Below, piece by piece: positions 1,438-33,025 of a stretch of DNA of 64,000 nt (its first letter is position 1; every line of letters begins with the position of its first letter). The translations under genes were made by a program, and so were the position numbers. Under the pieces are notes generated by a model. That model did no database searches. It was not told the DNA's origin and saw nothing but the letters and a program-made list of their open reading frames with translations. The stretch is from an uncultured Candidatus Rokubacteria bacterium (lineage in GTDB: Bacteria; Methylomirabilota; Methylomirabilia; Rokubacteriales; CSP1-6), in assembly GCA_963789955.1 (NCBI GenBank), contig CAWBMV010000034.1, positions 992,001 to 1,056,000 on the forward strand, given 5' to 3'.

Positions 1438-2607
1438 ATGAGAAACGTCGCGCTGATCGGAGCGGGGGTCTCGAAGTTCGGCGTTCGGAAGGCGAGCTAT
1501 CGCGACCTGATCTGGGAGGCCGGCAAGGCGTGCTTCGACAGCGTGCCGGCGGTCAAGCCCAAAGACGTCGAAGGTCTCGTCGTCGGGTCGGTCATGCCGG
1601 AGCGGACGGCGTTCCAGTCCCACATCTCGTCGATGGCCGCCGAGGCCCTCGGGATCAGGCCGAGCGCCTTGAGCGCGCGCACGGAGCACATGTGCGCCTC
1701 GGGCACGGTCGGCATTCGCTATGCCTATGCCTTCATCGCCGCCGGACTGGCGGATCTCGTCATGGTGCTCGGCGTGGAGAAGCTGAACCAGCCGAACGGC
1801 GACGAGGCGATCCTGAACATGGGGACGGGTGTCGATCGCGAGTGGGAGGCCTCGTTCGGGCTCACCGCGCCGCCCTGCTTCGCGCTGGCCGCGCAGCGCC
1901 ACATCGCGGAGTACGGGACCACCGAGGAGCAGCTCGCGATGGTCGGCGTGAAGAACCACACGCACGCCTCGAAGAACCCCAACGCGCATTTTCAGCGGGG
2001 CGCGACGCTCGAGCAGGTGCTCGGCTCGCGCATGATCTCCTCGCCGCTCCGGCTCTTCATGTGCTCGCCGATCACCGACGGGGCGGCCGCGGTGCTGGTC
2101 GCGTCGGAGGAGCGCGCGCGCGAATTCACCGACCACCCGGTGTGGATCCGCGGCACCGGCCAGGCGCTCGACGGGTTCCAGCTGACGTCGCTTCACGAGG
2201 ACTACGCGCACTGGCCGGCGCTCGCGCGCGCGGCGCAGTCGGCCTACGGGATGGCGGGCGTGCGGGCGCAGGACATCGACGTCGCCGAGGTCCACGACTG
2301 CTTCGCGATCGCCGAGCTGATCGCCTACGAGGAGCTCGGGTTCTGCCGCAAGGGTGAGGCCGGCGCCTTCGTCGCCGACGGTCGAAGCGACTACGGCGGC
2401 GACGTCGTGGTGAACCCGCGCGGCGGACTCATGGGCTGCGGACATCCGCTCGGCGCCACCGGCGTCGCGCAGGCGGCCGAGGTGTTCGCTCAGCTCCGCG
2501 GCGAGGCCGGCGCCCGCCAGGTCCCGGACGCATCGGTCGGTCTCACGCACAACAACAGCGGGATGGGCGAGCACGTGGTCATGATCTACGGCCGCGAGCG
2601 TCGATGA
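1438..2607 (+). CDS. SCP2-type thiolase
   Basis: MCASG (catalytic Cys), EVHDCF, GHPLGATG; C-terminal HNNSG in place of CxG. Confidence 0.92.
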   Translation: MRNVALIGAGVSKFGVRKASYRDLIWEAGKACFDSVPAVKPKDVEGLVVGSVMPERTAFQSHISSMAAEALGIRPSALSARTEHMCASGTVGIRYAYAFIAAGLADLVMVLGVEKLNQPNGDEAILNMGTGVDREWEASFGLTAPPCFALAAQRHIAEYGTTEEQLAMVGVKNHTHASKNPNAHFQRGATLEQVLGSRMISSPLRLFMCSPITDGAAAVLVASEERAREFTDHPVWIRGTGQALDGFQLTSLHEDYAHWPALARAAQSAYGMAGVRAQDIDVAEVHDCFAIAELIAYEELGFCRKGEAGAFVADGRSDYGGDVVVNPRGGLMGCGHPLGATGVAQAAEVFAQLRGEAGARQVPDASVGLTHNNSGMGEHVVMIYGRERR

Positions 2608-3557
2608 AGCACGTCGCGGTCCTCGGGCCGGGAAGGATCGGGCGCCAGATCGCGCTCGCCTTCGCCCTCGGCGGGAGCCGCGTGTCCCTGGTCGACGTCA
2701 AGACTCGTCCGGCCGGCGGCGCCGCCGCGGTGTTCGCCGATGCGCGACGCGAGGTCCGCCGAGACCTCACGTTGATGGCCGAGGAGGGCGTGATCCAGCG
2801 CGCCGAGATCGAGCCGGCGCTCGGCCGAATCGACGACCGGACCGGGCTCGAAGGCCTCGAAGGCTGCGGGTTCGTGCAGGAAGCGCTGCCCGAGCTCGTC
2901 GACCTCAAGCGCGACGTTCTCGGGCGAGTGTCGGCGGCCGTCTCGCCCGAGACGATCATCGCCTCGACCAGCTCCACGATCTCGCCGAAGCACATGGCCG
3001 ACGCGGTCCGCGGCCCCGAGCGCTTCCTCGTCGTCCACTGGCTGAACCCGGCGCACATCATCCCGCTCGTGGAGGTCGTACCCGGACAGGCGACCGCGAG
3101 CACGGTCGTCGAGCGGACCATCGCCGCCCTCGAGAAGCTCGGCAAGGTTCCCGTGCGCTGCGCCGACTCGCCCGGATTCATCGGACCCCGGATGCAGGCG
3201 CTGCTGATGAACGAGGCCGTGCGTCTGGTCGAGGAAGGCGTCGCGACGCCGGAAGACGTCGACCGCGCCTTCAAGGCCGGCATGGGGTTTCGCTACGCGA
3301 CGGTCGGCATCTTCGAGTTCATCGACTGGGGCGGCGTCGACATCCTCCACCGCGCGAGCGGGTTCCTGGCCAAGGCGCTCGGCGACGACCGCTTTCGCGC
3401 CGCGCGGCTGGTCGAGGAGAAAATCGCGCGCAACGAGCTCGGCCCGAAGACCGGGCGCGGCTTCTTCGACTACGCGGGCGATCGGCGCGAGGCGTTCGAG
3501 ACCGCCAAGGTGCGCGACCTGCTCCGCCAGCTCCGGCGCCGGCGGGAGACGACGTGA
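2604..3557 (+). CDS. 3-hydroxyacyl-CoA (3-hydroxybutyryl-CoA-like) dehydrogenase
   Basis: GPGRIG Rossmann motif, EALPE, STSST, HWLNP..IPLVEVV, PGFI..R, KTGRGFFDY. Confidence 0.9.
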   Translation: MKHVAVLGPGRIGRQIALAFALGGSRVSLVDVKTRPAGGAAAVFADARREVRRDLTLMAEEGVIQRAEIEPALGRIDDRTGLEGLEGCGFVQEALPELVDLKRDVLGRVSAAVSPETIIASTSSTISPKHMADAVRGPERFLVVHWLNPAHIIPLVEVVPGQATASTVVERTIAALEKLGKVPVRCADSPGFIGPRMQALLMNEAVRLVEEGVATPEDVDRAFKAGMGFRYATVGIFEFIDWGGVDILHRASGFLAKALGDDRFRAARLVEEKIARNELGPKTGRGFFDYAGDRREAFETAKVRDLLRQLRRRRETT

Positions 3558-3982
3558 GCTACTTCCGGGCCACCGATCCGTTTCCGCTGGAGTCGGCCGA
3601 GCACACGAAGCTCCACGAGTTCTACGCGCGGCTCGCCGCCGGGCGGCTGGCGACGACGCGGTGCGCGGGCTGCAAGCGGCTCGCCTGGCCGCCGCGCGCG
3701 TTCTGTGGTGAATGCGGCTCGGACGCGTTCGACTGGGTCGACCTGTCGGGTGAAGGCACGATCCACGCGTTCACGATTCAGGAGGTGGGATTGCCCGGCG
3801 GCTTCGCGGGCCCGCGCGTCTTCGCGATCGTGAAGATCGATGGCCTCCGCGTGTTCTCGATCCTGGTCGACGCCGAGCCGGCGAAGGTGGCGATCGGCCA
3901 GGCCGTCCGCGTGTCGCCGCTCAGGGTCGCCGACGACCCGAACGGCAACGCGCGCTGGCTGCCGGCGTTCCGTCCGGCATGA
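3554..3982 (+). CDS. DUF35 Zn-ribbon/OB-fold protein (thiolase partner)
   Basis: CAGC...[11 protein letters not shown] followed by [10 protein letters not shown]. Confidence 0.88.
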
Positions 3983-4362
3983 AGGTGCTGATCGCCAAGC
4001 CCGGGCTCGACGGCCACGATCGGGGCGCCAAGGTCGTGGCCCACGCGCTCCGCGACGCGGGATTCGAGGTGGTCTACTCCGGACTCAAGCGGACGCCGGA
4101 CGAGATCGTGCGGGAAGCGATCCAGGAGGACGTCGACGTCATCGGTCTCTCGGTGCTCTCGGGCGCCCACCTCTTGCTGGCGCGCCGGATCATCGACGGG
4201 CTGCGGGCCCAGGACGCCGGCGACATCGCGGTGGTCGTCGGGGGTATCATTCCTCCGCGTGACGTCGAGGCGCTGAAGCAGCTGGGCGTGCGCCACGTGT
4301 TCCCGATGGGGACGCCGCTCCCCGACATCGTGAAGGCGTTCAAGAAGGAGCCGCCGCGTTGA
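3979..4362 (+). CDS. Acyl-CoA mutase small, cobalamin-binding subunit
   Basis: [13 protein letters not shown] (DxHxxG), [15 protein letters not shown]. Confidence 0.95.
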
Positions 4363-4410: not shown

Positions 4411-6006
4411 ATGAAAGAGATCAAAGCGCACGCCGGCTTCCCGATCGCACCGGTCTATGGTCCCGAGGACGTCGCGGGTGTCGACTTCGACCGCGACATC
4501 GGGCGGCCCGGCGAGTATCCGTACACGCGCGGGATCCACAAGCACATGTACCGCGACCGGCTCTGGACGATGCGCCAGTACGTCGGCTTCGGCACGCCGG
4601 CGGAGACCAACGCCCGATTCAAGTACCTGATGGCGCACGGGCAGGATGCGCTCAACGTCGCCTTCGACCTGCCGACGCAGCTCGGCCTCGACTCCGACGA
4701 TCCCAAGGCGGAAGGCGAGGTCGGTCGGGTCGGGATGGCGGTCGACACGCTCGCCGACATGGAGGAAGCGTTCGCCGGCATCCCGCTCGACCGCGTGAGC
4801 GTGTCGCTCACGATCAACGGCATGGCCGCGCCGATCACCGCCATGTACTACGCCGTCGCCGAGAAGCAGGGCGTGGCCGCCGAGCGCGTGGTCACCACGC
4901 CGCAGAACGACATCCTGAAAGAGTTCATCGCACGGGGCACGTGGATCTATCCGGTCGATCCCTCGCTGCGCCTCGTCGCGGATCTCATCGAGTTCTCGGC
5001 GCGCCACTATCCGCGCGCCAACCCCGTGTCCGTCTGCGGCTATCACATCCGCGAGGCCGGGTGCACCACCGCGCAGGAGATGGCGTACGGTCTGGCGATC
5101 GCCGCCGCCTACATCGAGCTGATGCTCGCGCGCGGCCTGGCGGTGGACGACTTCGCGCCGCGGATCTCGTTCAACTTCACCGCCTGGGGAAAGATCTTCG
5201 AGGAGGTCGCGAAGTTCCGCGCGGGGCGGCGGCTCTACGCGCGTATGCTCCGCGAGCGCTTCCACGCGTCCAATCCGAAATCGTGGATGTTCCGGAGCCT
5301 GATCGGCGGCGGCGGCTCGGCGTTCGCGGTCCAGGAGCCCGAGAACAACATCGTGCGCGGCGCGTACATCGCGCTCGCCGCGTCGCTCTCGGGCGCGCAG
5401 ACGATGGCGCTGCCGACCTACGACGAGGCGTACACCATCCCGTCGCCCAAGGCTCAGCTGATCGCGCTGCGCACGATGCAGATCTGCGCCGAGGAGTCGG
5501 GCGCGGCCGACACGGTGGATCCGCTCGCCGGCTCGTACTACGTGGAGTCCCTCACCAACGCGATGGAGAAGCGGATCGGGGAGGAGCTGGCGAGCGTCGA
5601 GCGCATGGGCGGCATCGTCGAGGCCGTCCGGACCGGCGCGATCCAGGCGGAGGTGGCGCGCCAGGCGTACCTGTACGAGCAGAGGGTCGTCTCGGGCGAG
5701 ATCCCGCGCGTCGCGGTCAACTGCCACGTCGGCGACGTCCCCGCCGAGGCCGATCGCGAGGTGGAGCTCTACGCCTTCGATTCGAAGGCGCACGCCGCTC
5801 AGCTGGCCAAGCTCGAGCGTACCCGCGCCCAGCGGGACGGCAGCGCGGCGCGGACGGCGCTGCGCCGGGTGGCCGAGGCGGCGCGCGGACGAGACAATCT
5901 GATGGACCCGATCATGGAAGCCGTGAAGGCGTACGCGACGCTCGGCGAGATCGCCCAGGCCATGCGCGACGTGTTCGGCGAGCACAAGGAAGCCGTGAAG
6001 TTCTGA
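4411..6006 (+). CDS. Adenosylcobalamin-dependent acyl-CoA mutase large subunit (methylmalonyl-CoA mutase family, atypical active site)
   Basis: [61 protein letters not shown]. Confidence 0.93.
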   Translation: MKEIKAHAGFPIAPVYGPEDVAGVDFDRDIGRPGEYPYTRGIHKHMYRDRLWTMRQYVGFGTPAETNARFKYLMAHGQDALNVAFDLPTQLGLDSDDPKAEGEVGRVGMAVDTLADMEEAFAGIPLDRVSVSLTINGMAAPITAMYYAVAEKQGVAAERVVTTPQNDILKEFIARGTWIYPVDPSLRLVADLIEFSARHYPRANPVSVCGYHIREAGCTTAQEMAYGLAIAAAYIELMLARGLAVDDFAPRISFNFTAWGKIFEEVAKFRAGRRLYARMLRERFHASNPKSWMFRSLIGGGGSAFAVQEPENNIVRGAYIALAASLSGAQTMALPTYDEAYTIPSPKAQLIALRTMQICAEESGAADTVDPLAGSYYVESLTNAMEKRIGEELASVERMGGIVEAVRTGAIQAEVARQAYLYEQRVVSGEIPRVAVNCHVGDVPAEADREVELYAFDSKAHAAQLAKLERTRAQRDGSAARTALRRVAEAARGRDNLMDPIMEAVKAYATLGEIAQAMRDVFGEHKEAVKF

Positions 6007-6008
6007 CG

Positions 6009-8294
6009 ATGGCCGAGCCGTTCGACGTCATCGGCAAATCGACCCCCAAGCGGGACGGCCCGGACAAGGTCACCGGGCGGACGCGCTATCTGCACGACCT
6101 CGAGCTGCCAAGGCTCTTGCACGGAAAGATCTTGCGCACGCCGGTGCCGCACGCACGGATCGTCCGGGTCGACACGAGCCGCGCCCGCGCGCTGCCGGGC
6201 GTGCTGGCGGTGCTGACGGGCGAAGACGTCGAGCAGCGGCCCTTCGGCTTCGCCAAGGACCAGATCGCGCTCAAGCGCGGCAAGGTGCGGTGCATCCGGG
6301 ACGAGGTGGCGGCGGTGGCGGCCGAGACGGCCGAGATCGCAGAGGAAGCACTCGCGTTGATCGACGCCGACTACGCGCCGCTGCCAGCGGTGTTCGATCC
6401 GCTGGCCGCGCTCGAGCCGGGCGCGCCGCTCGTGCACGAGGAGCTCACGACCAACGCGCATCATCTCCGCTACCGATTCGTTCACGGCGACGTCGACCGC
6501 GCGTTCGACGAGGCGGCGGCCGTGGTCGAGGACACGTACCGGTTGAACTTCGTCACGCCGGCGTGTCTCGGCACGATGGTCGCCATCGCCGACTGGGAGC
6601 CCACCACCGGCAGCCTCACCATGTGGTCCACGACCCAGGTGCCGTTCCTGTACCAGCGCGACCTCGGCGAGGCGCTCGGGATCGGCGGCGATCGCGTCCG
6701 GGTGCTGCAGCCTCCGGTCGGCGGCAACTTCGGCCGAGGCCTCGACATCTACCCGATCGACGTCATCGCCGCCATGCTCGCCCGCGCGGCGCGTCGGCCG
6801 GTGAAGATCGAGTTCGACCGCGTGGAGGAGTTCGTGGCCTGTCCGACGCGCGAGCCGTGCGCGATCCGGCTGCGCACGGCGGCCGACCGGGACGGACGGC
6901 TCCTCGCTCGCGACGCGCACGTGACGATCGACAGCGGCGCCTACACCTCCTGGGGCTCGACGACGCCCTACGTGATGATGTCGACGGTCGCCGGGCTCTA
7001 CCGGGTGCCGAACGTACGTTTCGACACGAGGATCGCGTACACGAACAATCCCTACTCCGGCTCGATGCGCGGCTACGGCAATCCCGAGTCCACGTTCGCG
7101 GTCGAGTCGCAGATGGACGACCTGGCCGATCGGCTCGGCATGGATCGACTCGAGCTCAGACGGCGGAACGTGACGAAGTCGGGCGACGTCAACCCCCAGG
7201 GATTCGTGCTCACCTCGTTCGCGATGCGTGAGTGCCTCGAGGCCGCGGCGGAGGAGATCGCGAAGACCCCGCCGCCAACGGTGCCCGGCTGGAAGCGCGG
7301 TGTCGGCTACGCCGGCATGTTCCACGTCGGCGGCGGCGCGCGCATCTACCGCTCGGACGGGTGCGGCGCGATCGTGAAGCTCGACGACTTCGGCAAGGTC
7401 ACGCTCATCACGGGCGCGAGCGAGATCGGCCAGGGCTCGGAGACGGTGCTCGCCATGATCGTCGCCGAGACGCTCGGCGTGCCGCTCGAGCGGGTCGACG
7501 TCGTCAACTCGGACACGAGCGTCAGACCCTGGGACGTCGGCACCCACGCGAGCCGCACGACGTTCGTCGCCGGCAATGCCGCGCGTCTGGCCGCGGAGAA
7601 GGTGAAGGCGCAGCTGCTCGAGACGGCCGCCGTGCAGTTCGGGGAGCCCGCGTCCGCGCTCTCTGTGAAGGGCGGCTGGGTCTTCGTCGAGCGCGACCCG
7701 CCGCGCCGACTCCAGTACGAGGCGGTGGGACGCGCGGGCCACTTCCGGGGCGGCGGCCGCATGCTGGTGGCCGAAGCGTTCTATGATCCGCCGACCACGA
7801 TGCTCGACAAGGATTTTCAGGGCAACGTGTCGGCCGCCTACACCTCGGCGTTTCAGGCGGTGCTCGTCGACGTCGATCCCGAGACGGGGCGAGTCGCCGT
7901 CCGCAAGGTCGTGTCCGCGCACGACGTCGGCCGGGCGCTGAATCCGGCCGCTGCCGAGGGCCAGGTGCACGGGGGCATCCACATGGGGCTCGGCTATGCG
8001 CTCTCCGAGAAGCTCGTCGTGGAGCAGGGCCAGGTGCTGAGCCAGACGTTCATGGACTATGCGGTGTTCAAGGCCGACGACATGCCCGAGATCGTCGTGC
8101 GGCTGATCGAATCCGTCGACGCCGAGGGGCCCTTCGGGGCCAAGGGCCTGGGCGAGTCCGGCGTGATTCCCGTCGCCGCCGCCGTTCGCAACGCGATCAA
8201 GGACGCGATCGGTGAGCGATTCACCGAGCTGCCGATCACCTCCGACCGCGTGCTCGTGTCCATTCAGCGGGCGGCCACACGCCATCCGCGGTAG
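6009..8294 (+). CDS. Xanthine dehydrogenase family molybdopterin-binding large subunit
   Basis: True start is ATG 6009 inside ORF 4941..8294. KVTG...Y, HARI, GGNFG, MRGYG, GQGSET, ASRTT, EGQVHGG and GAKGLGE motifs. Confidence 0.92.
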   Translation: MAEPFDVIGKSTPKRDGPDKVTGRTRYLHDLELPRLLHGKILRTPVPHARIVRVDTSRARALPGVLAVLTGEDVEQRPFGFAKDQIALKRGKVRCIRDEVAAVAAETAEIAEEALALIDADYAPLPAVFDPLAALEPGAPLVHEELTTNAHHLRYRFVHGDVDRAFDEAAAVVEDTYRLNFVTPACLGTMVAIADWEPTTGSLTMWSTTQVPFLYQRDLGEALGIGGDRVRVLQPPVGGNFGRGLDIYPIDVIAAMLARAARRPVKIEFDRVEEFVACPTREPCAIRLRTAADRDGRLLARDAHVTIDSGAYTSWGSTTPYVMMSTVAGLYRVPNVRFDTRIAYTNNPYSGSMRGYGNPESTFAVESQMDDLADRLGMDRLELRRRNVTKSGDVNPQGFVLTSFAMRECLEAAAEEIAKTPPPTVPGWKRGVGYAGMFHVGGGARIYRSDGCGAIVKLDDFGKVTLITGASEIGQGSETVLAMIVAETLGVPLERVDVVNSDTSVRPWDVGTHASRTTFVAGNAARLAAEKVKAQLLETAAVQFGEPASALSVKGGWVFVERDPPRRLQYEAVGRAGHFRGGGRMLVAEAFYDPPTTMLDKDFQGNVSAAYTSAFQAVLVDVDPETGRVAVRKVVSAHDVGRALNPAAAEGQVHGGIHMGLGYALSEKLVVEQGQVLSQTFMDYAVFKADDMPEIVVRLIESVDAEGPFGAKGLGESGVIPVAAAVRNAIKDAIGERFTELPITSDRVLVSIQRAATRHPR

Positions 8295-8302
8295 GAGTCG
8301 AT

Positions 8303-9496
8303 ATGAAGCTCTTCGAAGGCGTTCGCGTGCTGGACCTCTCACGGATGCTGGCGGGGCCGTACGGCTCCATGCTGCTCGCCGACATGGGCGCCGAGGTGAT
8401 CAAGATCGAGGATCCCGACGGCGGCGACCCGATGCGGATCATGGGGCCGCCGTTTTTGCCCGACGGCGAGTCGGCGTACTTCCTCGCGATCAACCGCAAC
8501 AAGAAGTCGCTCGCGCTCGATCTGGCGCGCGACCGCGGCCGCGAGGTGTTCTACGACCTCGTCCGGCAGTCGGACGTCGTCTGGGAGAACTTCCGGCCGG
8601 GCATCATGGAGCGGCTCGGCCTCGCGTACTCGAAGCTCTGGTCGCTCAATCAACGGATCATCGTCTGCTCGGTCTCGGCCTACGGGCAGGACGGGCCCTA
8701 TCGCGACTGGCCGGCGTTCGACCTCGCGCTGCAGGCGATGGGCGGCGCGATGTCCGTCACCGGCGAGGCGGGCGGCCGGCCGGTGCGCATGGGCTTGCCG
8801 ATGGCGGATCTCGCCGGCGGCATGTTCGGCGCCTTCTCCATCGCCGGCGCGCTGTTCCGCCGCGAGCGGACGGGCGAGGGCGCTCACATCGACCTCTCGC
8901 TGCTCGACTGTCAGGTCTCGCTCCTCACGTACATCGCGCAGTACTTCTGGACGAACGGGCGCGTGCCGATTCCGCTCGGCTCCGGCCACGCCTCGGTCGT
9001 GCCGTACTCGGCGCTGCAGACTCGTGACGGGCACCTGATCGTCGCGATCTTCGCCGAGAAGTTCTGGCCGCTCTTCTGCCGCGCGGTCGAGCATCCGGAG
9101 TGGGAGCGCGATCTGCGATTCGCCACCAATCGCGACCGGGTTCTGCATCGCGACGTCCTGATGCCGCTCGTCGAGGCCGCGTTCCGCACGCGCACGACCC
9201 GGGAGTGGCTCGAGCGGTTGCAGGGCGCGAACGTGCCGGCGACGCCGATCCTCAGCGTCGATCGCGTGCTGTCCGATCCGCAGGTGCTTCAGCGCGGCAT
9301 GGTCGTGGAGATGAACCATCCGCGCCACGGAAAGACGCAGACGCTCGGCTCGCCGGTCAAGATCGACGGCGCGCTGGGCCTCGAGGTGACGCCGCCGCCA
9401 CGGCTCGGCGAGCACACGAACGACATCCTGTCCCGTGTGCTCAAGTACACGAACGTGAAGATCGCGGAGCTCCACGCGACCGGAGCCATCGCGTGA
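8303..9496 (+). CDS. Class III CoA-transferase (CaiB/BaiF family)
   Basis: VLDLSRMLAGP, GAEVIKIE, NRNKKS, ENFRPG, catalytic Asp in PMADLAGG, PPRLGEHT. Confidence 0.93.
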   Translation: MKLFEGVRVLDLSRMLAGPYGSMLLADMGAEVIKIEDPDGGDPMRIMGPPFLPDGESAYFLAINRNKKSLALDLARDRGREVFYDLVRQSDVVWENFRPGIMERLGLAYSKLWSLNQRIIVCSVSAYGQDGPYRDWPAFDLALQAMGGAMSVTGEAGGRPVRMGLPMADLAGGMFGAFSIAGALFRRERTGEGAHIDLSLLDCQVSLLTYIAQYFWTNGRVPIPLGSGHASVVPYSALQTRDGHLIVAIFAEKFWPLFCRAVEHPEWERDLRFATNRDRVLHRDVLMPLVEAAFRTRTTREWLERLQGANVPATPILSVDRVLSDPQVLQRGMVVEMNHPRHGKTQTLGSPVKIDGALGLEVTPPPRLGEHTNDILSRVLKYTNVKIAELHATGAIA

Positions 9497-10602
9497 ACGT
9501 CGCGATCCTCGGCGCGAGCCACGGCGGATTCACGACCGCGGCGGACCTCGCCCTCGCCGGTCACGCGGTTCGCCTCTGGGCGCGATCCGCACAGGCGCTG
9601 GGGCCTCTGGCGCACGATCCCACGATCGTGCTCACCGCCGAGGGGCGCTCCGGCACCGCCCGCCTGGCGCGGGCGACGACGGATCTCGCCGAAGCGCTCG
9701 CCGGCGCCGAGATCGTGATCGCGCCGATCCCCGCGACCGGCCACGACGACCTGGCCAAGAGCCTGGCGCCGCACGTGAACGAGCGCCAGATCATCCTGCT
9801 CACGCCGGGGACGCTCGGCAGCTATGCGATCGCGCGCGCGCTCGCCCGCGCCGGCGCCCGGCAGCCCTTTTCTTTCGCGGAGACCGGGACCCTGCCGTAT
9901 CTGACGCGAAGGACGGGGCCGGCGGCGGTGTCGGCGCCCGTGCGCGCCGCGAATCTTCCGCTCGGCGTGTTCCCGGCGTCGCGCACCAAGCAGACGGTCG
10001 CGCGGCTCGCCGACCTGTTTCCAGCCGCGCGCCCCTGCGTCGACGCGCTCGACGTGGCGCTGACGAACGCGGGGCCCGTGATCCACCCGCCGCTGGTGCT
10101 CCTCAACGCGGGCGCGATCGACGGCGGAGCCTTCGACGTCCACGCTGCGGGAACCACGCCGAGTGTCCGGCGGTTGATCGACGTGGTCGATGCCGAACGG
10201 GTCGCGACGCGCACGGAGTGGGGGTACCCGGCGCCGCACTATGAGCTCGCCACCTATTACGACGAGGCGCGCGCCGCCGAGGGCCTCTACGGCGCGGGCG
10301 CCAGGACGAAGCTCCTCGCGAGCGGTCTCTGGAGTGAGATCGTCACGATGCAGCACCGGTACGTCACCGAGGACGTGGCGTTCGGCCTGGCGCTCTTCGA
10401 GTCGGCGGGGCGCGCGGCGGGTGTCGACACGCCGGGTGTCTCGGGACTCCTCCTGATGTTTCGCGCGCTGCTCGGCCGTGAGCTGTCGGGACGCGGCCGA
10501 GCGCTGGAGCACCTCGGGCTCGGTGACTTCAGCCGGCGCGAGATCCGTGGATTCCTCGACCAGGGCTGGGAGTCGCCGATGTGGCCGAAGGTGATCCGTT
10601 GA
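9493..10602 (+). CDS. NAD/NADP octopine/nopaline (opine) dehydrogenase family protein
   Basis: GTG 9493 overlaps the upstream stop. VAILGASHGG, ETGTLPY, N...IHPP..LLN, RYVTEDV motifs. Confidence 0.85.
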   Translation: MNVAILGASHGGFTTAADLALAGHAVRLWARSAQALGPLAHDPTIVLTAEGRSGTARLARATTDLAEALAGAEIVIAPIPATGHDDLAKSLAPHVNERQIILLTPGTLGSYAIARALARAGARQPFSFAETGTLPYLTRRTGPAAVSAPVRAANLPLGVFPASRTKQTVARLADLFPAARPCVDALDVALTNAGPVIHPPLVLLNAGAIDGGAFDVHAAGTTPSVRRLIDVVDAERVATRTEWGYPAPHYELATYYDEARAAEGLYGAGARTKLLASGLWSEIVTMQHRYVTEDVAFGLALFESAGRAAGVDTPGVSGLLLMFRALLGRELSGRGRALEHLGLGDFSRREIRGFLDQGWESPMWPKVIR

Positions 10603-11073
10603 GCGCTCCGCCCGCGCTCGAAGCCGATGGCCGGGGCGGTCTCACGCTGGGCGGCGCGCGCTATCTGCTGATCCGGCCCGAAACGCTCGTCGGGCTCCAG
10701 AAGGCGGTGGAGCACGGCGCTCGGCGAGCGCGCGGCGTCGTGCATCGCCGCTGGAGGCCGGGCCGGCGGCGCGCGGGCGGCGGCGTCGCTCGGCGGATCG
10801 GCGGAAGAGCGAGTCGGCCGTCTGCTCCGGATCGGCGGTGAGATCGGCTGGGGCGAGTTCGCGCTCGAGCGTCTGACCGCGACCGAGCTGTCGGTCAGCG
10901 TGCGCCATTCGCCCGTCGCCGAGTCGTACGGGCCGTCCGCGGCCCCGGTGTGCCATCTCATCCGCGGCGTGCTCGAATCGCTGGCGACCGCGACCTTCGG
11001 TCGGCCGGCCACGGTCGCCGAGACCGCGTGCGTCGCGACGGGCGCGCCGGCCTGTCGCTTCGTGGCCTCGTGA
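10599..11073 (+). CDS. V4R-domain small-ligand-binding protein (one frameshift near 10718)
   Basis: Joined frames read MSAPP...RYLLIRPETLVGLQKAVEH/ALGERAA...IGWGEF...HSPVAESYG...PVCHLIRGVL...ETACVATGAPACRF, the V4R C...E..C...G...C.F signature. Confidence 0.8.
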
Positions 11074-11948
11074 CGGGCGCCGCCCTCGTCCACGTCGTGG
11101 TCAGCGGCCTCGCGACCGGCTCGATCTACGCGCTGATGGCGATCAGCCTCGTCATCATCTACAACGCGACCCGGACGCTCAACTTCGCGCAGGGCGAGAT
11201 GCTGATGATCTCGACGTTCGTGGGCTGGACCGCGCTGCAGGTGCTCGCGGTGCCTCTGGTCGTCGCGCTGCTGGTCGCCGTGGTCGCCGCGGCGCTCCTG
11301 GGCTTCCTGCTCGAGCGGCTGGTCATCCGCCATGCGATCTCGGCGACGCACTTCGACGTACTGATCATCACGCTCGGCTTGTCGCTGATGCTGCGCTCGG
11401 CCGCCGGGATCGCGTGGACCCACGACGAGTTTCCGTTCCCGTCGTTCTTCGGGAACCGGCCCCTCGCGATCGGCCCGGTGCGCGTGGCGCCGGTGTCGCT
11501 CGGCATCATCGGCGCGTCGCTCGGGCTCATGCTGGCCCTCGCCGCGCTGTTCCGCTGGACGCGCCTGGGCCGCGCGATGCGCGCGGTCGCGCAGAATCAG
11601 CGGGCGGCGCGGCTCATGGGGATCAGCGTCGAGCGCGTCTACTCGTCGTCCTGGGTCATCGCCTCGGTCGTCGGCGCCGTCGCCGGCGTGCTGATCGCGC
11701 CGGTCATCTTCCTTTCGTCGAAGATGGGGCTCGTCGCCATCAACGGATTCACGGCGGCCGTCCTGGGCGGGTTCGGCTCGATGCCGGGCGCGGTGGTCGG
11801 CGGCATGCTGCTGGGTGTCCTCGAGAACCTGGCGCCGCTCTACCTGCCCGCCTCGATCAAGCACTCCGTGCCGTTCCTGGTCATGATCACGATCCTGCTC
11901 GTGCGGCCCGGCGGCGTGCTCGGGCGCGTCGCGCGGCGAAAGGTCTGA
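11070..11948 (+). CDS. Branched-chain amino acid-type ABC transporter permease (LivH-like)
   Basis: GSIYALMA, NFAQGE, TRLGRAMRAVAQN, GGFGS; hydrophobic. Confidence 0.92.
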   Translation: MTGAALVHVVVSGLATGSIYALMAISLVIIYNATRTLNFAQGEMLMISTFVGWTALQVLAVPLVVALLVAVVAAALLGFLLERLVIRHAISATHFDVLIITLGLSLMLRSAAGIAWTHDEFPFPSFFGNRPLAIGPVRVAPVSLGIIGASLGLMLALAALFRWTRLGRAMRAVAQNQRAARLMGISVERVYSSSWVIASVVGAVAGVLIAPVIFLSSKMGLVAINGFTAAVLGGFGSMPGAVVGGMLLGVLENLAPLYLPASIKHSVPFLVMITILLVRPGGVLGRVARRKV

Positions 11949-12898
11949 TGCGACACGCCGCGCTCGCGACCGGCGCCGCGGTGGTGCTCGGCTGGCCGTG
12001 GGCCGCGCCGCCCTACTTCGTCTTCCTGGCGAGCCTGATCGCGATCAACGCGATCGTGGCCATCGGGCTCAATCTCCTCTCCGGCTACACGAATCAGCTG
12101 TCGTTCGGCCACGCCGGGTTCCTGGCGATCGGCGCGTACGCGGCGGCGATCCTCACGATCCGCGCGCCGGCGCTGCCGGTGCCGGTGACGCTCCTGATCG
12201 CGGGCCTCGTCACCGCGGCGGTGGGGTTGGCGCTGGGCGTGCCGTGCTTGAGGCTCGAAGGGCTCTATCTGGCCATGGCGACCCTCGCCTTCGGCTTCGT
12301 CGTGGTCGAGGCGATTCTGAGTCTCGACTGGCTCACGCGCGGTAACGACGGCCTGCGCGTGCCGGCGGCGCGCCTCGGCCCCTGGATGCTCTCGACCGAC
12401 ACCTCCCGCTACTACCTGGTCATGGCGGTCGCCGCGCTGTTGATCGTCGCCGCCGTCAACATCAGCCGGACGCGGACCGGGCGCGCGCTCCTGGCCGTGC
12501 GCGAGAGCGAGATCGCGGCGCAGGCGAGCGGCATCCACCTGGCCGCGTACAAGACCTTGGCCTTCGTCGTGTCGGCCTTCTACACCGGCGTGGCCGGCGG
12601 CCTCTTCGCACTCGTCGTCGGCTTCCTCTCGCCCGATTCCTTCGACGTCTTCCTGTCGGTGGACTTCGTCGCGATGATCATCGTCGGCGGCCTCGGCTCG
12701 ATCCTGGGCTCCGTGGTGGGCGCCGCCGTCATCACGACCCTCAACGACTCACTCGCCGGCTTTCAGAACTACCGGCCGCTGATTTTCGGCGCGATCCTGA
12801 TAACGTCCATGCTGTTCATGCCCGGCGGCATCGCGAGCGCGCTCGGTAAGATTGCCGGGGCGCGCTCCAGGCCCTCTCGACAAGGAGACGATCGATGA
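11948..12898 (+). CDS. ABC transporter permease (LivM-like)
   Basis: GLNLLSGY..QLSFGHAGF, YLAMATLAF, GRALLAVRESE, GGLGS. Confidence 0.92.
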   Translation: MRHAALATGAAVVLGWPWAAPPYFVFLASLIAINAIVAIGLNLLSGYTNQLSFGHAGFLAIGAYAAAILTIRAPALPVPVTLLIAGLVTAAVGLALGVPCLRLEGLYLAMATLAFGFVVVEAILSLDWLTRGNDGLRVPAARLGPWMLSTDTSRYYLVMAVAALLIVAAVNISRTRTGRALLAVRESEIAAQASGIHLAAYKTLAFVVSAFYTGVAGGLFALVVGFLSPDSFDVFLSVDFVAMIIVGGLGSILGSVVGAAVITTLNDSLAGFQNYRPLIFGAILITSMLFMPGGIASALGKIAGARSRPSRQGDDR

Positions 12899-14059
12899 TC
12901 AGCCGCTCGAGCGTTCTGCTGCTCCTGGCTCTCGCGCTTGAGCGCGCTGCCCGCCGGCGCCCAGACGCCGGGTGTCAGCGACACCGAGATCGTGATCGGC
13001 GGATCGAACTCGTTCTCGGGCCCGCTCGCCTTCACGGGAGAGCAGATCACCAAATACGGCGTCGATCTCTACTTCAAGGTGATCAACGACGCGGGCGGGA
13101 TCCACGGGCGCAAGGTCCGCACCGTCTACTACGACGACGCCTATCGCCCGCAAGACGCCGTGGCCAACACCAAGAAGCTCGTCGAGCAGGACCGCGTCTT
13201 CGCGATCATCATCCCGCAGGGCTCGCCGCCGGTGGTCGCGACGCTCGACTATCTCGAGGAGAACAAGGTCCCGCTGCTCTTCCCGTATCAGAGCTCGCCG
13301 GTGACCCGCGGCAAGCGCTACGTGATGCAGGGGATGACCCTGAGCGATCGGTCGTCGAAGATGATGATCGACTACCTGGCCGGGCAGCGGAAGGTCAAGA
13401 AGTTCGCCGCGCTCTACCAGGACGACGAGTACGGCAAGTCGTTTCTCACCGCCTTCGAGAAGGATCTGGGGCGCTACGGCCTCAAGCTCGTCGCCGCCGA
13501 ATCGGTCAAGCGCGGGGTCACCGACGTGAGCGCGCAGGTCGCGAAGCTCCAGGCGGCGAAGCCCGAGGTGACGTTCCTCGTGCTGGTGCCGGGCCCGGGC
13601 GCGCAGGCATTGAAGGAGCGCCAGAAGATCGGCTGGACCGACACGATCATGGTCTCGACGGGCCCGCTGACGGACGAGCGCTACCTGGCGCTCGCCGGGG
13701 ACGCCGCCGAGGGGGTCGAGGGGCTCTCGCTCTGGCCCGATCCGGTGAGCTCCGATCTGCCGGGCGTGAAGCTCTACCGGGAGCACATGCGGCGCTACTT
13801 CCCGCAGAACGAGCCGAATCGGTACTCGATCGCCGGCTACTTCGCGGCCATGCTCTTCGCGGAAGGCGCCAAGCGCGCCGGCCGGAACCTGACGCGCGAC
13901 TCGCTGATGACCGCGCTCGAGTCCTTCAAGGGCTACGAGAGCGGCATCCTGCCGCCGATCACGATCGGCCCCGACCACGAGACGCAGAAGCAGGGATTCT
14001 GGGTGCGGGTCGAGAAGGGCAGCTTCAAGCCGATGACGGACTGGCTCAAGTCCGAGTAA
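12895..14059 (+). CDS. ABC substrate-binding protein (LivK-like; frameshift in the signal peptide near 12935)
   Basis: AQTPGVSDTEIVIG, INDAGGIHGRK, DDAYRP; signal peptide starts in the 12895 frame. Confidence 0.9.
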
Positions 14060-14063
14060 GGCG

Positions 14064-14828
14064 GTGCTCGGTGTCGAAGATCTCTCGATCAGCTTCGGCG
14101 GCCTCGCGGCGCTGAGCGGGCTCAGCTTCGAGGTCCGCGATCGGGAGATCTTCGCGCTGATCGGCCCCAACGGCGCCGGCAAGTCGACCGTGTTCAACGT
14201 GATCACGGGCCTCTACCGTCCCTCGAAGGGCCGGATCACTCTCGGCGGCGACGACTTGCGCGCGCTGGCGCCGCATCAGATCGCGCGGCGGGGTGTCGCG
14301 CGCACGTTCCAGAACACCGAGGTGTTTCGCCAGCTGACGGCCCTCGACAACGTCCTGATCGGCCGCCACAGCCATCTGCGTACGGGCGTGATTCGCGGCG
14401 CGCTGTGGCTGCCGGGTGTCCGGAGCGAGGAAGCGCGCGCGCGCGAGGCGGCCCACGCGCTGCTGGCGCGCTTCGGGCTCGGCGACGTCGCCGCGACCGA
14501 AGCGGGCAGCCTGCCGCTGGGCGCCCAGAAGCGGCTCGAGATCGCCCGGGCGCTGGCCTCCGAGCCGCGGCTCCTCCTGCTCGACGAGCCGGCGGGCGGG
14601 CTCAACCCCACGGAGACCAGGACGTTGATGGCGGTCATCCGAGGCCTGCGGGACGAACGCGGGCTGACGATCGTGGTGGTCGAGCACGACATGGAGCTGG
14701 TGATGGGTATCTCGGACCGCGTGGCCGTGCTCGACCACGGGCGCAAGATCGCGGAAGGCGAGCCCCGGCAGATCGTGACCGACGCCGCTGTCGTCGAGGC
14801 GTATCTGGGCAGCGAGGAGGACGCGTGA
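14064..14828 (+). CDS. ABC ATP-binding protein (LivG-like)
   Basis: GPNGAGKST, RTFQN, LLDEPAGG, EHDM. Confidence 0.93.
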   Translation: MLGVEDLSISFGGLAALSGLSFEVRDREIFALIGPNGAGKSTVFNVITGLYRPSKGRITLGGDDLRALAPHQIARRGVARTFQNTEVFRQLTALDNVLIGRHSHLRTGVIRGALWLPGVRSEEARAREAAHALLARFGLGDVAATEAGSLPLGAQKRLEIARALASEPRLLLLDEPAGGLNPTETRTLMAVIRGLRDERGLTIVVVEHDMELVMGISDRVAVLDHGRKIAEGEPRQIVTDAAVVEAYLGSEEDA

Positions 14829-15562
14829 TTCCCGTGCTCGAGCTCGACGACGTCGCGGTCGCGTACGGCAAGCGGCGCGCGCTCGACGGGCTGACCTTGC
14901 GCGTGTTGCCGGGCGAGATCGTCACGTTGCTGGGCGCGAACGGCGCGGGAAAGTCGACGACCTTGCGCGCGGTGTCCGGGCTCGTGCGACCGACGCAGGG
15001 TCGCATCCGCTACGAGGGCCGCGACATCACCCGCGTCCCGGCCGACACCATCGTGGCCGCCGGCGTCAGCCACGTCCCCGAGGGCCGCGAGATCTTCCCG
15101 GAGTTCTCGGTTCACGAGAACCTGCTCGTCGGCGGCCACACCGTGGAGCGGTCGCGGATCGTCGAGCGGCTGGAGTCGGTCTTCCGCCTCTTCCCCGTGC
15201 TCCGCGATCGGAAGGCGCAGATCGCCGGCACCCTCTCGGGCGGCGAGCAGCAGATGCTCGCCATCGGCCGCGCGCTGATGACGCGGCCGCGGCTCCTGCT
15301 CCTGGACGAGCCCTCGCTCGGGCTGGCGCCGATCCTCGCGCGCGAGATCTTCCGGGTGATCCGGCGCATCAACGACGACGGCGTCGCGGTGCTGCTCGTC
15401 GAGCAGAACGCGCGGCGCGCGCTCGCGCTCGCCTCCCGCGGCTACGTCCTCGAGACCGGGCGGCTCGTCACGTCGGGCACGAGTGCCCAGCTCACGGCCG
15501 ATCCGCGCGTCCGCACCGCCTACCTCGGACTCGACCGCGTCCGCGGCGACGTCGCGGGCTGA
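14825..15562 (+). CDS. ABC ATP-binding protein (LivF-like)
   Basis: GANGAGKST, LSGGEQQM, DEPSLGLAP, VEQNA. Confidence 0.93.
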   Translation: MIPVLELDDVAVAYGKRRALDGLTLRVLPGEIVTLLGANGAGKSTTLRAVSGLVRPTQGRIRYEGRDITRVPADTIVAAGVSHVPEGREIFPEFSVHENLLVGGHTVERSRIVERLESVFRLFPVLRDRKAQIAGTLSGGEQQMLAIGRALMTRPRLLLLDEPSLGLAPILAREIFRVIRRINDDGVAVLLVEQNARRALALASRGYVLETGRLVTSGTSAQLTADPRVRTAYLGLDRVRGDVAG

Positions 15563-15596
15563 CGCGCTAGACTCCATGGCCGTGAGCGGGAGCACG

Positions 15597-16868
15597 ATGT
15601 GGCAGCCCGAGCTCGAGACCCTCGATCGCGAGCCGCTCGAGCGGCTCGTCGTCGAGCGGATGCGCGCGACGCTCGCTCGAGTCCTGAGCGAGCCGGCCTG
15701 GGCGCGCCGTCTCGGGGGCGTCCGCCCCGGAGACATCGCGCGTGTCGCGGACTGGCGGACGCTGCCGTTCCTCACCAAGGACGAGCTCCGCGACGCGTAC
15801 CCCTACGGGCTCGCGTGCGCGCGCGCGGCCGGCTACCGGCGCATCCAGATGTCGAGCGGCACGACCGGCAACCCGATCTTGAATCCGTACACGGACGGCG
15901 ATGTGGCGCAGTGGGGCGAGGTCATGGCGCGCTGCTACGCCGCCGCGGGTGTCGGCCGCGACGACGTCATCCAGATCACGCCCTCGTTCGGCCTGTTCAC
16001 CGGCGGATTCGGCTTCCACTACGGCGCCGAGAGGATCGGGGCGATGGTGATCCCCACCGGCGCCGGCCGGACGGCGCTGCAGCTCCGCCTCATGCGCGAT
16101 CTGAAGGCGACCGTCGTCACCGCGATCGCGACCTATCCGCTGCGCCTGATCGAGGCGGCGCGCGAGGACGGCTTCGATCTGGCCTCGCTCTCGCTCCGGG
16201 TCGGCATCCTCGGCTCGGAGATGTGGTCCGACGAGCTGAGAGCGCGCATCGAGCGTGAGCTCGGCATCCGGACCTTCGACATCATCGGCATGACCGAGAC
16301 CGGCGGGCCCGGACTCGGCATCGACTGCGCCGCCCGCCGCGGCGTCCACGTCTGGGAAGACCACTACTACCCCGAGGTCATCGATCCGATGACCGGCGCG
16401 GTCGTGCCGGACGGGACGGAGGGTGAGCTCGTCCTCTCGACCTTGACGCGCGAGGGGCTGCCGCTCGTCCGCTATCGAACGCACGACCTGACGCGGATCG
16501 TGTCGCGCGCGCGCTGTGACTGCGGCCGCACGTCGCTGAGGCTCGACCGGCTTCGCGGCCGCGTCGACGACATGGTGATCTACAAGGGCATCAACTTCTA
16601 TCCGCGACAGATCGAGACCGCCTTGTTGAAGCACGCCGGCGTGAGCCACGAGTATCAGGTCGTGCTCGACTCGGATGGCGGCGGCGAGCGGATGACGATC
16701 CACGTCGAGACGGACCCCGGGTGCGACCCGGCGGTCGCCGCGCGGATCCGGCGGGAGCTCCACGACGTGCTGGCGCTGAGTCCCGAGATTCGTCTGTGCG
16801 CCCACGGCGCGATCGAGCGGGCGCAGGGCAAGGCGGTGCGCGTCGTCGATCGCCGTCCGCGGCGATGA
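15597..16868 (+). CDS. Phenylacetate-CoA ligase family (PaaK-like) aryl/acyl-CoA ligase
   Basis: LPFLTKDELRDAYPYG, SSGTTG, GLFTGG.GFHYGAE, WEDH, RYRTHDL, GRVDDM, GKAVRVVDRR. Alternative start at 15576. Confidence 0.9.
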   Translation: MWQPELETLDREPLERLVVERMRATLARVLSEPAWARRLGGVRPGDIARVADWRTLPFLTKDELRDAYPYGLACARAAGYRRIQMSSGTTGNPILNPYTDGDVAQWGEVMARCYAAAGVGRDDVIQITPSFGLFTGGFGFHYGAERIGAMVIPTGAGRTALQLRLMRDLKATVVTAIATYPLRLIEAAREDGFDLASLSLRVGILGSEMWSDELRARIERELGIRTFDIIGMTETGGPGLGIDCAARRGVHVWEDHYYPEVIDPMTGAVVPDGTEGELVLSTLTREGLPLVRYRTHDLTRIVSRARCDCGRTSLRLDRLRGRVDDMVIYKGINFYPRQIETALLKHAGVSHEYQVVLDSDGGGERMTIHVETDPGCDPAVAARIRRELHDVLALSPEIRLCAHGAIERAQGKAVRVVDRRPRR

Positions 16869-18040
16869 GTCGCGGGCTCCTCGCGGGCGTGACCGTGCTG
16901 AGCCTCGAGCAGGCCACGACGTTGCCGTTCCTGACCTATCGGCTCGCCTGCGACGGCGCCCGGGTCATCCGTGTCGAGAATGCCGAGCGGCCCGATCCGA
17001 ACCGGTTCGTCGGCAGCGACGTGCTTCACGAGCCGGCGATGCGCAGCTATTTCCTGCCGAACAACTGCGGCAAGGAAGCGATCACCCTGAACCTCGGCCA
17101 TCCCGAGGGCCAGGCGCTCTTGCGACAGCTGATCGTGAAGCTCGGTGTCGACGTGTTCGCCTGCAACCAGCGCCCGCGAAGCTACGCCCGTCTCGGGATC
17201 GAGCCCGGGCCGCTCACGGCCGTGAAGCCGGATCTGATCTGGCTCGGGATCACCGGATTCGGACCCGAGCACGACGAGGCGGCGTACGATCCGGTGCTCC
17301 AGGCGCGCTCGGGGTTCATGGAGCTGACGGGCGAGCCGAACGGGTCGCCGCTCGTCTTCGGCTTGCCGATGGTCGATCTGGGCGCGGCCGAGCACGGCTA
17401 CGGCGAGGTGATGAAGGCGCTCTATCGCCGCGCGACGACGGGCGAGGGCGCGCGGATCGACGTGTCGATGCTCCGGAGCGCGGTGTCGTGGATGGTCGCG
17501 CCCGTCGCGCTCTCGAGCCTCGGCGAGCGCGTGACTCGCAAGGGCAATCGCCATCAGTTCTTCGCGCCGGTGGCCGTGCACCGGACCCGCGACGGCCACG
17601 TCTATCTGGCGATCGGCAACGATCAGCAGTGGGCGGCGCTGACGGCGCTGCCCGCGTTCAGCCGGCTCGCTCGGCCCGAGTACACCGCCAACGCGGGCCG
17701 CATCGGCGACGTCGAGCGGCTCGACCGCGAGCTGGCCGCGTGCTTCGCCGGTCTCTCGAGCGACGAGGCGCTCGAATCGCTGCGGCGGGCGGGCGTGCCG
17801 GTCTCTCGCGTGAACACCCTGGCCGACGTGATGGTCGATCGGTTCGTCGCCGACAAGCTCGTGGAGATCACGGACCCGCGCTCGGGGCTCCGGATCGCGC
17901 TGCCGGCCCCGCCGGTCGGCGCGCCGCCGGCGCTCAGCTTTCCGCCCCGACTCGGCGAGCACAATGAGAAGATCTACGGCGAAGCGCTCGGCCTGGGGCC
18001 CGAGCAGCTTGCCGACCTGCAGCGGCGACAGATCGTCTGA
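16865..18040 (+). CDS. Class III CoA-transferase (CaiB/BaiF family), divergent
   Basis: LAGVTVLSLEQA, GARVIRVE, PMVDLGA, PPRLGEHN. Confidence 0.88.
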   Translation: MSRGLLAGVTVLSLEQATTLPFLTYRLACDGARVIRVENAERPDPNRFVGSDVLHEPAMRSYFLPNNCGKEAITLNLGHPEGQALLRQLIVKLGVDVFACNQRPRSYARLGIEPGPLTAVKPDLIWLGITGFGPEHDEAAYDPVLQARSGFMELTGEPNGSPLVFGLPMVDLGAAEHGYGEVMKALYRRATTGEGARIDVSMLRSAVSWMVAPVALSSLGERVTRKGNRHQFFAPVAVHRTRDGHVYLAIGNDQQWAALTALPAFSRLARPEYTANAGRIGDVERLDRELAACFAGLSSDEALESLRRAGVPVSRVNTLADVMVDRFVADKLVEITDPRSGLRIALPAPPVGAPPALSFPPRLGEHNEKIYGEALGLGPEQLADLQRRQIV

Positions 18041-18054
18041 GGGAGACGCGAACC

Positions 18055-19202
18055 ATGAACGACGTGTTTTATCTCACCGAAGAGCAGCGGATGATCCGCG
18101 ATCTCGCCCGCAAGGTCGCGCGCGACCGGATCGCGCCGAACGCTGCGCAAGTACGACGAGGAAGAGAGCTATCCGACGGAGTCGATGCGCGCGCTCGTCG
18201 ACGCCGGCCTCTTCGGCATCTGGGTGCCGGAAGAGTACGGCGGCTCGAACATGGGCTGCCTCGCGCTCTCGCTGGTCGCCGAGGAGCTCGGGTGGGCGTG
18301 CGCGGGCACGACGACGAACTTCGGCGCCCATCCGCTCGGCGGGCTGCCGATCGTGCTGGCCGGCAGCGAGGAGCAGAAGAAGAAGTACCTGCCGCGGCTC
18401 GCGACCGGCGAGTTCATGGCGGCCTACTCGCTCTCGGAGCCGGGATCGGGCTCGGACGCCGCGAGCCTCCGGACGACGGCGGTGCGCAAGGGGGATCACT
18501 ACGTCCTGAACGGATCGAAGCAGTGGTGCTCCCACGGCGACCACGCCGATGTGCTCACGGTCTTTGCGACGGTCGATCCGGGCAAGCGCGCGAAGGGCAT
18601 CACGGCGTTTCTCATCGAGAAGGGCATGCCCGGCTTCTCGGTCGGCAAGAAAGAACGGAAGATGGGTATCCGCTGCTCGCCCACCGTGGCGCTCCACTTC
18701 ACGGACTGCGCCGTGCCGGTCGCAGCAGCGCCTGGGTGACGAAGGCGAGGGATTCAAGATCGCGATGCGCACGCTCGACATGACGCGACCGATGACGGGC
18801 GCGATGGCCGTCGGGATCGGCCAGGCGGCGCTCGATGCGGCGACGGCGTACGCGAAGGAGCGCCAGCAGTTCGGCCAGCCGATCGCCGCGTTCCAGGGCA
18901 TCCAGTTCATGCTCGCGGACATGGCGATGCAGGTGCACGCGGCGCGGCTCATGGTCCATCACGCCGCCCGGCAGGTCGACGCCGGCATCCGCGGCAACAC
19001 CTTGGAGGCGTCGATGGCCAAGTGCTGGGCCGGCGACGCCGCCATGAAGGTCGCCACCGATGCCGTGCAGATCTTCGGCGGCTACGGATACACGCGCGAG
19101 TTCCCGGTGGAGCGGTTCATGCGCGACGCGAAGATCATGCAGATCTACGAGGGGACGAATCAGATCCAGCGAATGATCATCGCCAAGGAGCTTCTAGGAT
19201 GA
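18055..19202 (+). CDS. Acyl-CoA dehydrogenase (frameshifts near 18145 and 18725)
   Basis: Three consecutive ORF pieces: [10 protein letters not shown] / PEEYGG...SEPGSGSD...KMGIR / GEGFKIAM...[17 protein letters not shown]. Confidence 0.9.
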
Positions 19203-28284: not shown

Positions 28285-28286
28285 GC

Positions 28287-31939: not shown

Positions 31940-33025
<1,086 letters not shown>

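Follow-up and report, generated by a model that had tools for sequence, protein, structure and literature searches.

What does the B12-dependent mutase encoded at positions 4411 to 6006 of this DNA act on? The window, that is, the whole stretch of 64,000 nucleotides analysed here, carries on its + strand an intact gene for the large (substrate-binding) subunit of an acyl-CoA mutase (531 amino acids; TIGR00641, 591.7 bits against a cut-off of 303.8), whose product bears the database name methylmalonyl-CoA mutase. A sequence-only reading had proposed instead a mutase for a bulky alkyl- or aryl-substituted malonyl- or succinyl-CoA, neither methylmalonyl-CoA mutase (MCM) nor ethylmalonyl-CoA mutase (Ecm), working with a small subunit at 3979 to 4362. 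The partner is indeed encoded there (+ strand; TIGR00640, 161.5 bits against a cut-off of 57.45), as a B12-binding subunit that is the counterpart of IaaG, and it precedes the large subunit in all 21 loci compared, namely our own and 20 chosen from mutase-positive relatives with long contigs. The wider proposal is supported by a sister branch containing IaaH, by pocket changes common to both and by an IaaF-type neighbour, and it can be narrowed to aryl substrates.

Residues were numbered by HMMER alignment to the P. shermanii MCM (1req), shifted by one residue to bring Tyr89, Arg207 and His244 into register. On this scale, MRQY (4570-4581) and KEFIARG (4918-4938) provide the equivalents of Tyr89 and Arg207, as had been supposed: Y57 (Y89), R175 (R207) and H212 (H244) are kept, together with Gln197 and Tyr243. 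The strands RSLIGGGG (5293-5316) and QTMALPTYDE (5398-5427) contain the three substitutions named earlier, His to Leu (L297 for H328), Gln to Gly (G299 for Q330) and Asn to Pro (P335 for N366). That list was correct as far as it went; however, it missed N255 for F287, A333 for H364, T331 for S362, C209 for S241, N82 for S114 and P164 for I196. By analogy with MCM and Ecm, the changed residues presumably line the substrate pocket. Kept and replaced pocket positions alike show no variation across the 121 sequences aligned, namely the protein itself and its 120 best homologues (83 to 94% identical), whose source names point to Rokubacteria; the pocket substitutions are therefore neither chance nor sequencing error.

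The closest described relative of this protein, judged by sequence comparison, is IaaH. IaaGH is the proposed phenylsuccinyl-CoA/benzylmalonyl-CoA mutase of anaerobic indoleacetate degradation (PMC8360864), and the iaaF primer published in the same paper was used to retrieve reference iaa loci. It led to three Rhodocyclales loci with the iaa gene order, two in Aromatoleum (A. buckelii and A. anaerobium) and one in a metagenome-assembled genome of Rhodocyclales. The studied strain EbN1 is thus not among our Aromatoleum references; the retrieved IaaC and IaaE have lengths of 708 and 564, compared with the 707 and 564 tabulated for A. aromaticum in PMC8453981. Aromatoleum-type IaaH is 53% identical to the 4411-6006 product (52.7% in the own-genome search) and IaaG is 49% identical to the small subunit. 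Both systems have split small and large subunits in the same order, and both retain Y89, R207 and H244. In the comparison made here, they also have in common a pocket signature of N114, C241, N287, a hydrophobic residue 328, a small residue 330, a Gly run, T362 and A364, which offers a means of recognizing IaaH-type aryl mutases that databases label methylmalonyl-CoA mutase. The two types differ in fixed ways. The Aromatoleum-type strands read RMIAAGGGG and QTMALCSYDE, and the motif pairs are RMIA(A/G)GGGG in IaaH versus RSLIGGGGS here, ALCSYDE versus ALPTYDE and TAQ versus TPQ. Residue 366 is Pro in the Rokubacteriales proteins and Cys in all 14 IaaH-side rows, and the further fixed pocket differences (Rokubacteriales/IaaH) are Leu/Ile at 328, Ile/Ala at 329 and Pro/Ala at 196.

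Phylogenetic trees placed the Rokubacteriales mutases in one clade (support 100/100) beside a sister group that holds IaaH and other branches (97/94), the joint clade being supported at 100/99; a second tree of 95 rows recovered the same three nodes at 100, 97 and 98. The joint clade is separate from MCM, isobutyryl-CoA mutase (ICM), 2-hydroxyisobutyryl-CoA mutase (HCM) and an Ecm-like protein, and within it the Rokubacteriales proteins form a sister branch and are not nested in the IaaH group. Sampling in these trees is biased, since the metagenome rows were picked by motif: the motif scan returned at least 120 stretches, and those analysed were 80 listed loci plus one genome match, 14 of them of the window's type. 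No closer IaaH paralogue was found in the phylum sample, where all 68 matches at E ≤ 1e-175 were this same mutase gene (51 to 56%), and no subfamily member came up in searches of plasmids, the best match there reaching 48%. Of 401 Pseudomonadota genomes, 2 carry the shared motif, the centre genome being one of them. The IaaH family is seen to comprise several branches, and every branch has a hydantoinase of its own.

The neighbouring genes point in the same direction. Just upstream of the window lie hydantoinase A and B genes (C34:987152-990945) and a GntR gene (all three within C34:986403-990945), with hydantoinase A found in 12 and hydantoinase B in 13 of the 21 loci; all genes that follow, up to 18040, are on the + strand. 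The window opens with the 3′ end (1-209) of an IaaF-type acyl-CoA dehydrogenase gene (whole gene C34:991049-992209; 19 of the 21 loci). Its product is 49% identical to IaaF (48.5% in the own-genome search), groups in the IaaF clade with a support of 100 and bears a GGG motif (LLPGGGTSE, 132-140) that recurs in 19 of 19 cluster copies. In PMC8360864, GGG in place of YEG is described as the mark of IaaF, which decarboxylates benzylmalonyl-CoA and for which O2 was the only acceptor found. Next come genes for a MaoC-like (R)-hydratase of a beta-oxidation module (236-688; PF01575; 10 loci), a FabG-like SDR that is likely a 3-hydroxyacyl-CoA dehydrogenase (685-1428; 8 loci), an SCP2/BbsB-type thiolase in the place of IaaA (1438-2607; PRK06064 above cut-off; all 21 loci), a PRK08269-like protein resembling 3-hydroxyacyl-CoA dehydrogenases (2604-3557; 9 loci) and a ChsH2/DUF35 Zn-ribbon OB-fold protein that is likely the thiolase partner (3554-3982; PF12172 and PF01796; all 21 loci). 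The two mutase subunits, likewise present in every locus, are followed by a molybdo-hydroxylase large subunit of the IaaK lineage (6009-8294; 20 loci), which is 46.8% identical to IaaK, the best of 56 matches in the genome. A reading of this subunit as 4-hydroxybenzoyl-CoA reductase, taken from its top match, was rejected: IaaK itself has the same top match, so the match is not diagnostic.

Farther downstream are family III CoA-transferase 1 (8303-9496; 20 loci), which is 30% identical to IaaL, falls in a separate clade and is not of the IaaL lineage; an opine-dehydrogenase-like protein (9493-10602; PF02317; 1bg6, E 8e-40; 13 loci); and a V4R-domain gene (10599-11067), frameshifted in the assembly near 10715, the two frames of which match a relative's V4R protein. 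A Liv-type ABC transporter (11070-15562) comprises two permeases, a binding protein (12938-14059; 26% to IaaM) and two ATPases, and the run ends with a PaaK-type arylacetate-CoA ligase in the place of IaaB (15543-16868; TIGR02155, 391 bits, below the cut-off of 646) and with family III CoA-transferase 2 (16865-18040), which is of the IaaL lineage (41.8% to IaaL, best of 39 in the genome). The own-genome best matches of IaaH, IaaF, IaaK and IaaL all lie inside the cluster, and in FastTree trees the IaaF, IaaK and IaaL counterparts each group with the Iaa protein at 100. Single-base frameshifts affect the V4R gene (10715), an acyl-CoA dehydrogenase gene at 18055-19202 (18148 and 18723) and boxB (C34:892029-893431); a contig of run X1 lacks one base at 10715, 18148 and 18723, which makes errors of assembly, or differences between strains, the likely cause. 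Scans for promoters and terminators gave matches at chance level, and the soil and sediment RNA-library contigs that cover the region cannot, as contigs, show transcription. Beyond the cluster, 24388-30461 encodes ExbB/ExbD, a PepSY-TM protein and a TonB-dependent receptor.

Neighbours of the IaaF, IaaG, IaaK and IaaL lineages in one operon make aryl-succinyl chemistry likely, and we hold aryl- or otherwise bulky-succinyl chemistry to be very probable. That the substrate derives from an indole ring is a step less secure, though still favoured. From their sequence relationships, the large and small subunits together probably convert (2-aminophenyl)succinyl-CoA, or a ring-substituted form of it, to (2-aminobenzyl)malonyl-CoA in a variant of the indoleacetate pathway, with indoleacetate or 2-oxindoleacetate as the likeliest substrate of that pathway. 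The mutase chemistry itself is already described. In the active site, by analogy with MCM, Tyr57 and Arg175 would hold the free carboxylate and His212 would serve the radical step, while Leu297, Gly299-302, Ala333, Pro335 and Asn255 would open room for the aromatic ring. In the proposed scheme, the ABC transporter would take up the substrate, the PaaK-type ligase would form the arylacetyl-CoA, the Mo enzyme would hydroxylate C2, giving an oxindole lactam that the ATP-dependent hydantoinase A/B would open to an arylsuccinate, and the CoA-transferases would add or shift CoA. The mutase would then move the thioester carbon by a radical 1,2-migration. Its product would be oxidized and decarboxylated to aminocinnamoyl-CoA by the GGG dehydrogenase, and MaoC, SDR and thiolase/DUF35 would release acetyl-CoA and 2-aminobenzoyl-CoA. 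Such a mutase would be a candidate biocatalyst for benzylmalonyl-CoA.

For the last intermediate we propose an oxygen-using exit, because BcrB was not found in the organism's own genome (87% complete). This genome does contain MeaB (C34:1159906) and a frameshifted BoxB. It also encodes, on contig C37, a protein that scores above the cut-off for the PRK08255 family and combines an FAD monooxygenase with an OYE domain. We take this family to include both 2-aminobenzoyl-CoA monooxygenase/reductase and salicylyl-CoA 5-hydroxylase. The C37 monooxygenase/reductase would remove 2-aminobenzoyl-CoA by an oxygen-using route; the reaction of 2-aminobenzoyl-CoA monooxygenase/reductase is described in PMC3534580, in passages that make no tie to the PRK08255 model. 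If the scheme is true, an oxygen-independent upper pathway would apparently be coupled to an oxygen-using lower one. A PRK08255-family protein occurs in 40 of 78 genomes that have a pathway marker and in 1 of 28 that have none, counts that are inflated by kinship; in six genomes its gene and that of the mutase are 22 to 34 kb apart, and in three it lies between the hydantoinase and mutase modules.

The distribution of the cluster was examined in a phylum sample of 151 genomes, 106 of the order Rokubacteriales and 45 outside it. With presence taken as at least 70% identity among the matches listed, six partial matches included, the mutase is found in 76 of the 106 genomes and, again among the matches listed, in none of the 45. 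The dehydrogenase is present in 74 of the 106 and hydantoinase B in 72 (two matches at 55 to 56% left out), and all three occur together in 68. An IaaH-like mutase among iaa-like genes in most of the sampled Rokubacteriales genomes makes it likely that these soil bacteria break down indoleacetate, or a compound close to it, along a variant route. Were the substrate indoleacetate or 2-oxindoleacetate, the order would rank as a widespread and overlooked soil consumer of auxin-type compounds, given the occurrence of the gene in 76 of its 106 sampled genomes; a limited literature search, conducted mostly at the level of listings, returned no statement of such consumption by Rokubacteriales. In three family f2 genomes, a TrpB2-type gene precedes the cluster, either immediately or at a distance of about 7 kb (L216:1512-2873, L213:10707 and L214:101-1462), and in the window trpD (31940-33022) lies about 14 kb past the cluster; this proximity is a possible indole link or chance.

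The gene set departs from the canonical iaa operon in several respects. The core hydantoinase is 36% and 29% identical to IaaC and IaaE, respectively, ranks no higher than third and fourth among the matches in its genome and forms its own clade, i.e., it is not orthologous to IaaCE; a search with hydantoinase B found only close relatives with generic names. No orthologues of IaaB or IaaA occur in the cluster, their best genome matches (35.5% and 26.4%) lying outside it, and where the iaa operon has IaaB and IaaA, the Rokubacteriales cluster has the PaaK-type ligase and SCP2-thiolase/DUF35/MaoC/SDR. It also has an extra CoA-transferase and the opine-dehydrogenase-like gene. In this cluster the Mo enzyme lacks its FAD and FeS subunits: counterparts of IaaI and IaaJ are missing beside the IaaK-type gene and were seen in only 6 of the 21 loci; paralogues are encoded elsewhere in the genome. 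With a non-orthologous hydantoinase and with IaaA and IaaB replaced, the cluster is iaa-like and not a canonical iaa operon, and the known iaa pathway leaves CoA-transferase 1, the opine-dehydrogenase-like gene and V4R without explanation. Displacement of the hydantoinase step does occur, as the arrangement of locus L126 indicates, and this speaks for an indole ring: the L126 operon has iaaQABFGHIJKLM in canonical form but no iaaCE, and a non-IaaCE hydantoinase adjoins it. Locus L081 unites IaaCE orthologues with MaoC and SDR.

These departures bear on the alternative that best survives, in which the same chemistry acts on another ring, i.e., on an N-heterocyclic acetate or lactam such as an oxindole that is substituted or N-alkylated, a compound of the pyrrole or pyridine type or a saturated lactam, indoleacetate being used only by strains with an extra IaaCE-like pair. 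We consider this possible but rather unlikely. The separate hydantoinase lineage and the extra CoA-transferase speak for it, as do the invariance of the clade-specific pocket residues and the presence of the opine-dehydrogenase-like gene in more than half of the loci (see the count above). One Desulfocarbo genome contains three IaaF paralogues (PMC8360864), a hint that the family handles several substrates. An IaaE-like gene (56 to 62%) is present in 10 of the 151 genomes, our own not among them. In six it is no more than 10 kb away from the mutase, and in 4 of 4 loci examined it belongs to the mutase's same-strand gene run, which favours an indole ring; all 10 genomes keep the core hydantoinase too. 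The two hydantoinases thus coexist, and this co-retention fits a second substrate as well as it fits redundancy. On the other hand, locus L103 pairs a Rokubacterial-type hydantoinase (66/78%) and CoA-transferase 1 (57%) with an IaaH-motif mutase, the near-canonical iaa cluster of locus L091 (86% to IaaH) also has opine-dehydrogenase-like and PRK08269-like genes, and the link to the PRK08255 family argues for an aminobenzoyl- or salicylyl-type product.

Should another ring nevertheless be the substrate, the Rokubacteriales branch could, as a tentative reading, represent a second, undescribed B12 route for N-heterocycles, with a mutase retuned (Leu328, Ile329 and Pro366) for a substrate other than plain indoleacetate and with an oxygen-using exit. 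Its own lactam hydrolase, the extra CoA-transferase and the opine-dehydrogenase-like enzyme might then feed the mutase, a possibility we hold just as guardedly. In that event, about 70% of the sampled genomes of this soil and sediment order would carry an unrecognized sink for a plant- or tryptophan-derived heterocycle. Where Rokubacterial clusters have the extra IaaCE-like pair, they also include V4R and a gene of the VOC/glyoxalase family, perhaps for an epimerase, and in some cases a luciferase-like monooxygenase (L217:10905-12780, L218:10130-10540 and L220:11014-11439).

The preferred reading, an aryl mutase of a variant indoleacetate pathway, has also to be weighed against an alkylmalonyl- or alkylsuccinyl-CoA mutase of the MatB/ActD or alkane-degradation type acting on medium-chain aliphatic substrates. 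Such mutases have been proposed (PMC5719088), and an overlap of substrates is plausible in that IaaF weakly accepts alkylmalonyl-CoA of C4 and above (PMC8360864). However, the 4411-6006 protein falls in a clade with IaaH in trees that covered MCM, ICM, HCM and an Ecm-like protein; the hydantoinase, the IaaK-type Mo enzyme and the PaaK-type ligase fit an N-heteroaryl acetate; and no CCR-type or alkylsuccinate-synthase gene is found among the conserved neighbours in the 21 loci. We therefore regard an aliphatic substrate as improbable.

A divergent MCM or Ecm of central metabolism, to which the kept Tyr89/Arg207 pair, the database name and a Pro366 as in the Ecm-like protein might point, is the least credible alternative of all, given that His328, Gln330, Asn366 and Phe287 are all lost, that a separate MCM-type gene with these MCM residues intact is present in the genome (C1:695705) and that the protein is only 35% identical to the Ecm-like protein and lies outside its branch. 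MCM (P. shermanii 1req and human 2xij) is alike in fold family, carboxylate pair, His244, Tyr243 and Gln197, and unlike in H328, Q330, N366, F287, H364 and W334, which are replaced here; loss of the first four sets the protein apart from MCM. The earlier analogy with Ecm held in part. The literature searched yielded no usable Ecm residue data and nothing usable on Ferroglobus. The stand-in for Ecm/MeaA was a Methylobacterium protein (L225), whose assignment is by sequence motifs and not by annotation. It resembles the Rokubacteriales protein in Y89/R207, loss of His328, Pro366 and Cys241, but has Gly328 and retains Gln330 and Phe287. An Ecm identity would call for the Gly328/Gln330/Pro366/Phe287 set and a place in the Ecm branch, and of these only Pro366 is common to both. 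With Gln330 and Phe287 kept, with so low an identity and with placement outside the clade, Pro366 in the Ecm-like protein is probably convergent.

The best solved-structure match of the large subunit is the 2-hydroxyisobutyryl-CoA mutase 4r3u (E 9.5e-139), which, like isobutyryl-CoA mutase, has the same two-subunit layout. However, 4r3u has Ile89 and Gln207 where the 4411-6006 protein has Tyr and Arg, and the Phe/Ile89 plus Gln207 mark of ICM and HCM is absent here. That mark is found in the window's second mutase (36916-38520), in which the strand RTHTQTAG (37821) and the ten-residue strand (37926) contrasted with QTMALPTYDE in the sequence-only reading are both present: its MRMF and KEFIAQK give Phe89/Gln207, so that it is of the isobutyryl-CoA-mutase type and not MCM. 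The gene is frameshifted near 38100, and around it are genes for ETF, two acyl-CoA dehydrogenases and its own small subunit (40097-40498).

A third branch of the IaaH family is characterized by RG[LI]FGGGG[SY], QTTALCSFDE and Gly at 164 and occurs in loci of about 41 to 56% GC (L084, L098, L108, L110, L111, L112, L130, L132, L133, L139, L147, L156 and others). These loci have their own hydantoinase, PaaK-type ligase and GntR, possibly for another substrate class. One IaaH-side member, P0125, has the B12-binding domain fused N-terminally (688 amino acids). Finally, among P0124-P0272 many 50%-cluster representatives keep Tyr89/Arg207 with different, unassigned pocket motifs (for example P0124, P0126, P0127, P0132 and P0133), a variety that suggests more undescribed substrate classes.
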